In this document: positions 4,748 to 11,662 of the stretch, piece after piece | Position numbering within the stretch: the first letter of the stretch is position 1 | How the letters are laid out: each line of letters starts with the position of its first letter | Source: Klebsiella phage vB_KpnM_VPA32 | Length of the DNA stretch: 64,000 nt | Direction: 5' to 3' (one strand) | Sequence record: OP558005.1 | Position numbers and translations under genes: made by a program | The notes under the pieces: model-generated | Seen by the model: the letters and a program-made list of their open reading frames with translations, nothing else | Told to the model about the DNA's origin: nothing | Databases searched by the model: none

Positions 4748-6592
4748 TTATTCGCTCATCCAAACTTTGCGTGGAGCAGCATCGTCACCCATAACCATTT
4801 CGAAGAGTTCTTTCCAGTTTTCTGGAAGAGAAACTACATCATAATGGGGTTGCTGAATTACTCGTTCATATTCATCTTCTTCAAGAGAACCTAGTCCTTT
4901 GATATAACGAAGTTTCCAACCAACGAGTTCATTCTTTTCAGCTTCGTATTCGGCGGCGGTGTAATACCACTTTTGTTGTTCGCCTTTACTCATAATGATA
5001 ACAGGAGTTTTGACGAAGCGAATTCGACCTTCTTCAAACAGACGAGGCCAATTACTAAAGAATGCCAAAAGACTTGGATAGATTGAACCTGTTCCGTCAA
5101 CATCCGCGTCAGTCATGATAGCGATGTTTTTGTAGTTCAGATTTTCATAATCTTCACCAATAGTCAGTCCAGTGATTGCACAGATATCGAAGACTTCTTT
5201 GTTCTTCATTGCTTCTGCTGCAGTCATTCCCCAAGTATTCAGGAACTTACCACGAAGTGGATAACCACCATGAAGTTTACGGTCACGAGTAGTCAGAAGA
5301 TATCCAATCGCAGAATCACCTTCTGTTAAGAACAGAGTAGTTTCTTCTTTATCATTGCCATAAAGTTCTGGCTTAATGTGTTTAGCAACCTTAGCCTTTG
5401 AAGCAGCTTTTGCAGCTTTAGTTTCAGCAGCTTTTTCTGCCGCCAATTTACGAGCCAACATAGCTTCAATAATTGGCATATGAATTGCTTCGGACTTCAT
5501 AACTTGTTGAGCAAGTTTTTTGTAGTCCAAATTCAAATGAGCTTTAACTTCACCCCACGGAGATGTCAGACGTTCTTTAGTCTGAGAATCAAATCGCATG
5601 TTGCTCATATCACGAACGAACATCACAAAAGTAAAACACTCTTTGATACGAGCCTTGTTTACTTCAAGTTTGTACTTGCGTTTGAGCATTGGGATAAGTT
5701 CATTTGACAATTCATCGACAACCAAATCAACATGAGAACCACCCTTAGAAGTATGGATGTTATTCACGTAAGTCAGTTGGCGGAAACCATCATCAGAACG
5801 ACCAATTGCAATTGAACAATTATCTTCATCAGCTACAATAGCTTCTTCATCAAATTGCTTAGCGAATTTCTTAAATCCGCCATTGACTTTTTTGCCTTGG
5901 AATTTGAATTCAATATCCGGGAATACTACCGCCAGAGTTTGAAGACGGTCTAGAACAATTGATTCATCTACTTCTGTAAGTCCTGAACTTTCGAAGTGAC
6001 TGAAGTCAGGAATGAACGATACTCGAGTTCCGGTCTTGGTTTGAATGAACTCTTTTTCCTTTGCTGGCTTACTATCCCAAGAGATATTCTCAGCCCCATT
6101 AGAGCATCGAACGATGATTTCGTTTTGTCCGTCACAAGTAGCTCCTGCAAAAGTTACAGAGAAAATATTAGTCAGTGCAGAACCGACACCATTCATACCA
6201 CCAGTTTTGCGTTCAGCATCATCGCCAAAGTTACCACCGGCGCGTGGACGAGTCCAGGCAGCTACTGGTCCAGGAATTTCATCACCTTCTGGAGTAACTA
6301 CTGGAGCTTGTGGAAGACCACGACCATTATCTGTTACGATAACTTTATTGCCTTTGAGCTCAACTGAAATTTTATTTGCAAACTTGAAGTTGGTACGAAT
6401 TGCTTCATCGACTGAGTTATCAATGATTTCGTCAATCAGCTTGATAACACCCGGAACGTAAGTTACACTTTGGAATTTACCAAACAGAAAACGTTCATGA
6501 GCTTCCATAGCTGAAGAGCCGATGTACATACCAGAGCGCTTAATGATATGCTCTCGGTCTGACAGAATTTTAATTTCGTTCTTAATCATCAT
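4748..6592 (-). CDS. 39: DNA topoisomerase II large subunit (GyrB-like ATPase), uninterrupted 39+60 fusion form
   Basis: 614 aa; MIKNEIKILSD..KRSGMYIGSS N-terminus as in T4 gp39; length covers gp39 plus gp60. Confidence 0.9.
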   Translation of the reverse strand: MMIKNEIKILSDREHIIKRSGMYIGSSAMEAHERFLFGKFQSVTYVPGVIKLIDEIIDNSVDEAIRTNFKFANKISVELKGNKVIVTDNGRGLPQAPVVTPEGDEIPGPVAAWTRPRAGGNFGDDAERKTGGMNGVGSALTNIFSVTFAGATCDGQNEIIVRCSNGAENISWDSKPAKEKEFIQTKTGTRVSFIPDFSHFESSGLTEVDESIVLDRLQTLAVVFPDIEFKFQGKKVNGGFKKFAKQFDEEAIVADEDNCSIAIGRSDDGFRQLTYVNNIHTSKGGSHVDLVVDELSNELIPMLKRKYKLEVNKARIKECFTFVMFVRDMSNMRFDSQTKERLTSPWGEVKAHLNLDYKKLAQQVMKSEAIHMPIIEAMLARKLAAEKAAETKAAKAASKAKVAKHIKPELYGNDKEETTLFLTEGDSAIGYLLTTRDRKLHGGYPLRGKFLNTWGMTAAEAMKNKEVFDICAITGLTIGEDYENLNYKNIAIMTDADVDGTGSIYPSLLAFFSNWPRLFEEGRIRFVKTPVIIMSKGEQQKWYYTAAEYEAEKNELVGWKLRYIKGLGSLEEDEYERVIQQPHYDVVSLPENWKELFEMVMGDDAAPRKVWMSE

Positions 6593-7080: not shown

Positions 7081-7100
7081 AAAGGGCCCGAAGGCCCTTT
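7081..7100 (-). terminator. UUCG-tetraloop hairpin terminator
   Basis: Identical GGGCC-UUCG-GGCCC followed by UUUGUUGUUU. Confidence 0.6.
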
Positions 7101-7102
7101 CA

Positions 7103-8638
7103 TTATACTTTACCTTGCAGAACGTTAGTGAACTGCGAACCACGCCAGAAGTAGCCTTGGTCATTCGGGTGAACGTTATCGCTTGAGGTATACAGATTTG
7201 CGTTCTCTGCAGTAACCCAACCTTTAACATCTACGAACTCTAAGTCTAACTCAGTAGTAAGTTCAATCAGTGCGTCACGAACCGCTGCGATTTGGTCAGT
7301 CATTCCAAGAGGAGTTGCTGGTCCAAATACGATAATTTTAGCTTGTGGCTGATATTGCTTAATCAGAGCAATAGACTCTCTGAAGTTAGTTTTAAGCAAA
7401 TCAATTCTACCAGCCGGAGCGTCATTATAGCCTAAAGCTAAAGTAATGATATCCGGAGTAAAACTCAGAGTTGCAAGCTTAGCTGTGATACGAGCTTGAG
7501 GCTGAGTTGAGTTTGTTGAAGTCCAACCAGAACCACCGATGCCATCAGCTAATCCAACTAAACCAAGCTTATCACAATAGAAACGGAAGTCGTTAAACGA
7601 CGCCTGAGTTGCCATTGTACCGAAGGTGTAAGAGTCACCAAGCTGCCAAATCATCTTAGCAGGACGAGTAATTGCTGTGATAGTTTTTCCAGTATCGATA
7701 TAAATTCCACCAAAAGCAGTATTCACACCAACCAGAGAATATTCACGCATTTGCTCAACTCCATTCCAATCGATGCTATAGATGTAAACTGCACCAGAAG
7801 AATCGGTAGTGACTGAAGTAGCAGAAATACGTTGTCCATCTACATAAAGGTCATACTTAGAGTTGTTGGCGGCGAGTTTGAAATCAATCTTGCTTGAATC
7901 AGTTTTGAAATTAACTCGGCATTGAGTTCCGTTGCCAGTACCATTTCCTCTGAAGCCTGCAACCGCGTCTTTGATATCAGAACCCCAATAAGTTATTTTG
8001 GAATCTGTGCGAGCAATTGTTACACCAGCATAAATTGTTGAAGCTACGCCTGCGTTAGTTGTTACTGTGAATTTAGCACCTGTACCAGTTCCGCCTGTTG
8101 CTGAAATTTCACCGACAGGAGCAGTTGCGTACACACCAGGTTTGCGAATTTGAGCTGTTGTAATTTCACCATTACTACCAACAGCAGTTACTCGAATCTG
8201 TCCAGGAACATCTCCTTCTGCTCCGGGGATATCAACAATATCCCCGAACACATACCCAGTACCACCAGAAACTATAGTAGCAGTTCCAGATAATCCAACG
8301 CCTTTAAGCAATTTTTGAGTAGGCGGATTTGACATCACAGCAACAGGTTGAAGCATTGGTCCCAGCGGTGGCTGAGGGTCTGGACCATCTACAGTATATT
8401 CGCTTAATGTGTATTGATAGCCATTTTTAGATTCAATGAAATTAACTTCACCGTAATCTACATAAGCTTGTTTGAGAGTATCAATTTGAAGTGCATATTG
8501 AGGGTCAGCGTATTCACGCCAGTCTTTACCTTCTTCCTTGGCTTTAATAAGGATGTTATGAATCCACCAAGGAAGGTAAAGAAAACTTGTATTACGCCAC
8601 GGAATAGGATGTACCGTGGTCCAAATATCTATAGCCAT
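7103..8638 (-). CDS. multidomain protein with C-terminal SGNH/GDSL hydrolase (esterase/lipase-like) domain
   Basis: 511 aa; GDSYTFG (block I), GYNDA, DNVHPNDQG (block V DxxH); Gly/Thr-rich beta-repeat middle region. Confidence 0.7.
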   Translation of the reverse strand: MAIDIWTTVHPIPWRNTSFLYLPWWIHNILIKAKEEGKDWREYADPQYALQIDTLKQAYVDYGEVNFIESKNGYQYTLSEYTVDGPDPQPPLGPMLQPVAVMSNPPTQKLLKGVGLSGTATIVSGGTGYVFGDIVDIPGAEGDVPGQIRVTAVGSNGEITTAQIRKPGVYATAPVGEISATGGTGTGAKFTVTTNAGVASTIYAGVTIARTDSKITYWGSDIKDAVAGFRGNGTGNGTQCRVNFKTDSSKIDFKLAANNSKYDLYVDGQRISATSVTTDSSGAVYIYSIDWNGVEQMREYSLVGVNTAFGGIYIDTGKTITAITRPAKMIWQLGDSYTFGTMATQASFNDFRFYCDKLGLVGLADGIGGSGWTSTNSTQPQARITAKLATLSFTPDIITLALGYNDAPAGRIDLLKTNFRESIALIKQYQPQAKIIVFGPATPLGMTDQIAAVRDALIELTTELDLEFVDVKGWVTAENANLYTSSDNVHPNDQGYFWRGSQFTNVLQGKV

Positions 8639-8670
8639 AATGTTCTCCTTATAGTCTATAGATATTTATT

Positions 8671-8931
8671 TTATTCAAACCTGATAGTAGAGTTCTTAAA
8701 GAACATACCAGAGCAAACAGCACCCTTGACAGGAATACCCGTAGGACCTTTAGCAGTGAAACCTGTAGAGAAAGCATCTTTATCACAACTCAACCATGCG
8801 TAACCTGTGAATTCAATTTCGCTAAATCCATTAGCTTTAAGAATACGCTCTGCGCCTGTTTCATCTGTGCAACTAGACAGAATACCAATAGATAGAATAG
8901 CTGCAATCAAACCCATTACAAACACTTTCAT
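8671..8931 (-). CDS. small lipoprotein
   Basis: Signal peptide with lipobox ILSSC at residues 17-21. Confidence 0.55.
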   Translation of the reverse strand: MKVFVMGLIAAILSIGILSSCTDETGAERILKANGFSEIEFTGYAWLSCDKDAFSTGFTAKGPTGIPVKGAVCSGMFFKNSTIRFE

Positions 8932-10972: not shown

Positions 10973-11662
10973 TTAACCGCGGCCTTTTGGTAACGACAGA
11001 GGGTCAATTTCATCGCCTTCTGGCGCATCTTCTAAACCAAGAGCATAACGTTGAGCATATTTTAGCATCAAAATGTCTTTAGCACAATCATGAATAGAAT
11101 CATGTGCAATGAAACCGTCCAAGACTCCCTTACGAAGAGGAGTTGTAGTCAAGTCACGAGTCATTAGCAAAGCTTCAATAGCAGTACGAATATCACGTTG
11201 GTTCCAGAATTTACATGGTTCCAGACTAAATGTATCAATATCTTTTTCGGCGATGCCTTTACGAGCTTCGCCTTCGCGGAGAATATCTACGAGAATTGGG
11301 AAGTCGAAAGATTGGCCACGACACCAACCGAAAGATTTCCAAGGGTCTACGCCGTTGTCTTTCAGGAATTGAAGTAACTTATACAGACCTTCTACATGGT
11401 CAATGTCTTGGTCAGAAGGAGCCAAGTTCTTACGAGCTTCTTCGGATTGAGATTTCCACCACTTCATAGTAGAAGCACCGAACAGACGAGTTTTTTGCTG
11501 AGCTCGTAAATCAAACTTCAGTTTCATACCACGATTGACGAGTTCATCAAACGTTTCAACTACTTCTGGGTTCGGGTCAAATACGACTGTCGCCACATCA
11601 ATGACAGCAGAACGAGAGACGTTACCGAACGTCTCCCAGTCAATAATAAAATCTTTAATCAT
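10973..11662 (-). CDS. dexA: exonuclease A
   Basis: 229 aa; FIIDWETFG, DPNPEVVETFDELV, FDFPILVDI, CKFWNQRDIRT, HDSIHDCAKDI match T4 DexA. Confidence 0.88.
   Translation of the reverse strand: MIKDFIIDWETFGNVSRSAVIDVATVVFDPNPEVVETFDELVNRGMKLKFDLRAQQKTRLFGASTMKWWKSQSEEARKNLAPSDQDIDHVEGLYKLLQFLKDNGVDPWKSFGWCRGQSFDFPILVDILREGEARKGIAEKDIDTFSLEPCKFWNQRDIRTAIEALLMTRDLTTTPLRKGVLDGFIAHDSIHDCAKDILMLKYAQRYALGLEDAPEGDEIDPLSLPKGRG

Follow-up and report, generated by a model that had tools for sequence, protein, structure and literature searches.

Capsid decoration proteins are usually seen as stabilisers or passive adhesins, as with the Ig-like domains of Hoc. The haemagglutinin-esterases of influenza C virus, toroviruses and some coronaviruses are SGNH-fold O-acetyl esterases that sit on the virion surface and have a receptor-destroying role, while some phages carry SGNH deacetylases on the tail, G7C gp63.1 being one such tail-fibre or tailspike enzyme. 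The reports on Pectobacterium phage Possum (PMC9569702) and the Schitoviridae phages Moo19 and B2 (PMC11654681) likewise describe tail SGNH deacetylases as esterases aimed at host surface polysaccharide. The closest described protein comes from Enterobacter phage PG7, for which Fokine et al. (2023, Viruses 15:1517, section 3.6, PMC10385173) noted a second Hoc-like protein of 511 residues, with an N-terminal capsid-binding domain and a C-terminal domain of the GDSL-like lipase/acylhydrolase family. Their treatment of it is a single sentence, based on sequence and AlphaFold inspection, and the account includes no experiment and describes no middle domain, Soc-anchored variant or expression signals (PMC10385173). 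This was the only relevant paper in our literature search for Hoc or Soc joined to SGNH, GDSL or esterase domains.

We analysed a 64,000-nt window of DNA from VPA32, a T4-like Karamvirus of the PG7/CC31 type. The ORF list and its translation confirmed that a 511-aa ORF, a Hoc-anchor/esterase fusion, runs from ATG to TAA on the minus strand at 7103-8638 (511 codons plus the stop at 7103-7105). Neighbouring coordinates also bore out its predicted position between the gene for the topoisomerase large subunit (4748-6592) and dexA (10973-11662)/dda. The gene adjoins gene 39, unlike T4 hoc, which lies next to inh. At the amino acid level the product is 99.2% identical to KAALPHA_11 of phage KaAlpha and 96.5% identical to PG7 'hoc', and PHROG 9703 matches its full length (E=2.6e-266). 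The PG7 protein, equal in length and at the same locus, is an ortholog that shows no difference in substance, and the predicted architecture is thus already published and known in silico. GenBank records of sister phages label the protein 'head outer capsid protein (c-part SGNH hydrolase)'; the original prediction treated the gene as unplaced and missed the Hoc domain, which is key to the protein. Searching with tblastn revealed neither a second Hoc anchor nor a second esterase in the rest of the 64-kb window. Most Karamvirus phages have the gene and EnC07 does not, making it accessory.

Because the gene joins a Hoc capsid-docking domain to a sugar-esterase-type enzyme, the phage head probably bears a surface enzyme. 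The reading that we favour, at a probability of about 0.6, is that of an accessory decoration protein of the head that is made late and carries an enzyme as cargo, a carbohydrate de-O-acetylase displayed on the capsid. The anchor occupies residues 1-85 (8384-8638, minus strand). The N-terminal 100 aa had been called unrelated, but residues 9-75 share homology with the T4 Hoc capsid-binding domain (T4 residues about 281-376). At the gp23* contacts that Fokine et al. list (PMC10385173), the anchor is identical to T4 Hoc at His295, Arg300, Trp309, Trp310, Asn358, Gly359 and Tyr360; the kept contact residues in VPA32 numbering are His10, Arg15, Trp24, Trp25, Glu69, Ser70, Asn72 and Gly73. Replacements are conservative at Tyr304, Trp306 and Arg357 (Lys71), and the contacts that changed are Tyr293 to Thr8, His299 to Trp14 and Asp313 to Asn28, so that the Asp313-Arg357 pair of T4 Hoc is Asn28-Lys71 in this lineage. 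Tyr293 has been described as highly conserved (PMC10385173), and residues 1-15 of the VPA32 protein were modelled by AF2 with low confidence. The canonical Hoc and gp23 used here were those of sister phage KaAlpha rather than of the VPA32 window; in KaAlpha, 18 of the 19 residues of the Hoc-bound gp23 segment Gly326-Arg344 are identical, with Asp336 and Arg344 kept, and canonical Hoc coexists with the Hoc-esterase protein.

The altered contacts at Thr8, Trp14 and Asn28 are among the points that could instead indicate a soluble enzyme outside the virion, either freed at lysis or acting inside the cell on host envelope polymers, in which the Hoc-like domain is a relic or serves some other interaction. 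However, the anchor is still under constraint: orthologs that share 61-90% identity in the esterase share 57-73% in the anchor, with H10, R15, W25 and the ES(R/K)NG loop retained. Export of a soluble form is not suggested by the N-terminus, which has no hydrophobic stretch, in line with the predicted lack of a signal peptide. We therefore consider a soluble enzyme unlikely. On the capsid-display reading, the Hoc-type domain would dock where canonical Hoc does, in the middle of expanded gp23* hexamers. A T4-type head offers 155 such sites, and each hexamer would take no more than one molecule. The protein would presumably compete there with canonical Hoc.

Expression signals also bear on these two readings. 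A box had been pointed out upstream of the gene, and a candidate late promoter, AATAAATA, is indeed present at 8663-8670 on the minus strand, 24 nt before the ATG; it departs from the T4 late consensus TATAAATA at the first base. The window contains 7 copies of the core ATAAATA where 16.1±3.6 are expected, and every minus-strand copy (6/6) sits 12-36 nt upstream of an ORF start, soc included. The same position holds ATAAATA in PEi20, S13 and the Soc fusion of CIP9. Reading from the sequence, we found a Shine-Dalgarno motif, AAGGAG, at 8645-8650 (minus strand), 6 nt before the ATG. No sigma-70-type promoter was found directly upstream, near 8640-8700 of the minus strand. A terminator-like hairpin with an 8-bp GC-rich stem begins 2 nt past the stop (7081-7100, minus strand; reported on both strands). 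Together with its conservation, the late-promoter-like box suggests that the gene is transcribed late and the protein synthesised late in infection, which argues against a soluble enzyme. The gene does sit among early genes, and the terminator scan detected no terminator between it and the upstream ORF. Read-through could thus give early transcription, and the setting is a point in favour of a soluble enzyme.

Behind the anchor, residues 86-105 (8324-8383, minus strand) form a Pro-rich flexible linker with a pLDDT of about 55 in both models. This is the fusion junction, and identity to homologs without a Hoc anchor begins at about residue 90-95. Next come a small beta-barrel resembling domain I of the T4 tail sheath protein gp18 (residues 106-200; 8039-8323, minus strand), a beta-sandwich that Foldseek identified as CE2-esterase-like (residues 201-325; 7664-8038, minus strand) and the SGNH/GDSL hydrolase catalytic domain (residues 326-511; 7106-7663, minus strand). 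The central region had been described as Gly/Thr-rich repeats. Its composition agrees, with Gly and Thr making up 35% of the middle domain, but self-BLAST of residues 95-325 found no internal repeats, and this region consists of two different beta domains. Neither Pfam nor fold searches detected an Ig-like domain in the 511-aa protein. The layout therefore differs from T4 Hoc (PDB 5vf3_Z, 8t1x_X), in which a string of Ig-like domains precedes a C-terminal anchor; in VPA32 the anchor is N-terminal and the cargo is the beta-barrel, beta-sandwich and SGNH domain. The linker and barrel may keep the two-domain esterase off the shell.

The C-terminal domain is firmly assigned as an SGNH/GDSL hydrolase. 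Pfam PF13472 (Lipase_GDSL_2) matches residues 333-496 (E=3.7e-18, 67.1 bits against a cut-off of 32.9) and PF00657 also scores above its threshold (28.5 bits against 23.6). The catalytic blocks GDSYTFG, GYND and DNVHPND named in the original prediction are all present, and SGNH blocks I, II, III and V are represented by G334-D-S336, G366/G371, G403-Y-N405-D and D487-x-x-H490. The prediction had been staked on conservation of the catalytic residues, and Ser336, Gly366/371, Asn405, Asp487 and His490 are invariant in 45/45 homologs with identities down to 28%, as are D, S, N, D and H in a second set of 50 representatives. The AF2 model (pLDDT 87.5) has an alpha/beta/alpha flavodoxin-like fold, which Foldseek matched to many solved SGNH enzymes with a probability of 1.00.

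Canonical Hoc carries Ig-like binding modules as cargo, and members of this N-terminal anchor clade in Klebsiella phages bear other cargo, including an Ig-like one. By this pattern the protein could be a Hoc variant with a lectin-like tip, a glycan-binding adhesin whose SGNH domain is inert. However, full invariance of the catalytic residues across both homolog sets is unexpected for an inactive domain and makes loss of catalysis unlikely, and we regard an inert adhesin as highly improbable.

We also compared the whole module with solved structures. The top fold matches are the CE2 carbohydrate esterases, which combine a beta-sandwich with an SGNH domain, together with SsfX3 and the peptidoglycan O-acetylesterase Ape1; over 340-400 columns, Foldseek aligned the CE2 esterases 2wao, 2wab, 2waa, 4dev and 4xvh and SsfX3 (3skv) with E-values down to 4e-16. 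The CE2 enzymes of Clostridium thermocellum (CtCE2, 2wao/2wab) and Cellvibrio japonicus (2waa/2w9x) share the order of beta-sandwich then SGNH domain (E about 1e-13, TMt 0.62-0.71). At just 12-17% identity, and with Pfam CE2_N at residues 237-297 below threshold (E=0.037, 14.5 bits against a cut-off of 27.9), the VPA32 protein does not belong to CE2 by sequence, and in contrast to CE2 it has an intact Asp-x-x-His. Searching the PDB with phmmer retrieved no CE2 chain, and the nearest solved sequence homolog of the enzyme was a marginal match, the retrotransposon ORF1 esterase 4c1b. Among viral proteins, the closest fold matches bear the names of tail fibres or minor tail proteins.

An SGNH fold does not by itself specify a substrate: the best match, SsfX3, is an acyltransferase, and lipases of the TesA type match the catalytic domain as well. 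The protein could therefore be displayed on the capsid and act on lipids or another non-carbohydrate ester, as a lysophospholipase, an outer-membrane lipase or an acyltransferase. Both Pfam families are named GDSL-like lipase/acylhydrolase and some homologs carry the database names 'lysophospholipase L1' or 'lipase'. E. coli TesA and the PAF acetylhydrolases match with TMt up to 0.78, but they cover the catalytic domain alone, whereas the best matches to the full module are carbohydrate esterases of the beta-sandwich and SGNH type (CE2, Ape1). Relatives of the module are also found on tail-fibre-type anchors, a setting in which surface polysaccharide deacetylation is documented (PMC9569702, PMC11654681), and an acyltransferase would probably lack its acyl donor, such as acyl-CoA, outside the cell. 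A lipid or other non-carbohydrate substrate thus seems quite unlikely. We infer that the enzyme is a hydrolase rather than a transferase and that its substrate is carbohydrate. It would most likely strip O-acyl (acetyl) groups from a polysaccharide, either surface-bound or extracellular; candidate glycans are O-antigen, capsule, colanic acid and ECA, and candidate hosts are Enterobacter, Cronobacter and Klebsiella.

In Kanagawavirus cipnine phages (CIP9 gp129, IME523, Q7622, Entb_45 and ZX14), the same esterase module is joined to a Soc domain. These fusions have the same middle domain, beta-sandwich and SGNH domain as the VPA32 protein, with 51-55% identity per domain, and share its AATAAATA box. 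In contrast to VPA32, their anchor is Soc, which binds between gp23* capsomers, and the gene lies directly downstream of soc. The Soc domain is recognised by Pfam (E=1.2e-9), matches T4 Soc residues 22-72 (E=3.6e-9) and is 39% identical to the Soc of the same phage. RefSeq mislabels the CIP9-type fusion 'hoc'. In a neighbour-joining tree, Hoc- and Soc-anchored modules formed one clade in 100/100 bootstraps. The Soc forms are nested within it, a pattern that implies that the anchor was swapped. This monophyly led us to reject the idea that the two lineages had acquired the esterase independently. That the lost Hoc anchor was replaced by another capsid binder rather than deleted also argues against a soluble enzyme. 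In other phages and prophages the module sits on phage_tail_N, Mtd_N or BppL_N anchors; these tail anchors are limited to the relatives, and the VPA32 protein has the Hoc capsid domain instead. The exchange of Hoc and Soc anchors was not reported in the literature that we searched. It is new here, together with the tail-fibre anchors in prophage relatives, the conserved ATAAATA box and the accessory status of the gene.

The two virion mass-spectrometry papers found are uninformative about this protein, a point that leaves some room for a soluble enzyme: the ECLFM1 paper names only a few bands, and the ValerieMcCarty phages are Jiaodavirus and do not have the Hoc-esterase gene. The Pet-CM3-4 paper does not mention the protein. 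Two roles had been put forward for the enzyme, a virion-associated deacetylase and a modifier of host lipids or cell wall during infection. The Hoc anchor, the late-promoter-like box and the two-domain carbohydrate-esterase fold fit the first, and the second, with which a soluble enzyme would agree, is not favoured. The VPA32 protein differs from the tail deacetylases in its predicted virion location, the head, and in lacking a tail-attachment domain; it would therefore sit away from the adsorption organelle. A further probable difference is that it is monomeric, with one copy per hexamer, rather than trimeric. The closest functional analogy to a particle-wide esterase may be the haemagglutinin-esterases, although these are envelope glycoproteins of unrelated sequence that act on sialic acid. 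Deacetylation could help the particle to pass through the glycan layer and cell debris or to come free of them, which would be a receptor-destroying role, or could prepare the surface for adsorption.

Taken further, the head might act as a catalytic surface, with tens of active O-acetyl esterase copies sharing hexamer sites with canonical Hoc in a particle-wide receptor-destroying or glycan-editing role; we advance this tentatively, at slightly below even odds. If so, the swap between the unrelated Hoc and Soc anchors within one clade would point to selection on capsid display itself. Because the basic architecture is already published, the value lies in experimental tests and in the Hoc-to-Soc anchor exchange. 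The protein shows that nature tolerates an N-terminal anchor with a 45-kDa cargo, and a head-mounted enzyme, if real, would be a natural precedent for the engineered Hoc/Soc display on which T4 vaccine and delivery platforms rely. In phage therapy against the Enterobacter cloacae complex, presence or absence of the gene could affect host range or biofilm behaviour. If the proposal is correct, the capsid would take an active part in handling host glycans, biofilm matrix or debris, and no enzymatic capsid decoration protein would have been demonstrated earlier in a tailed phage.

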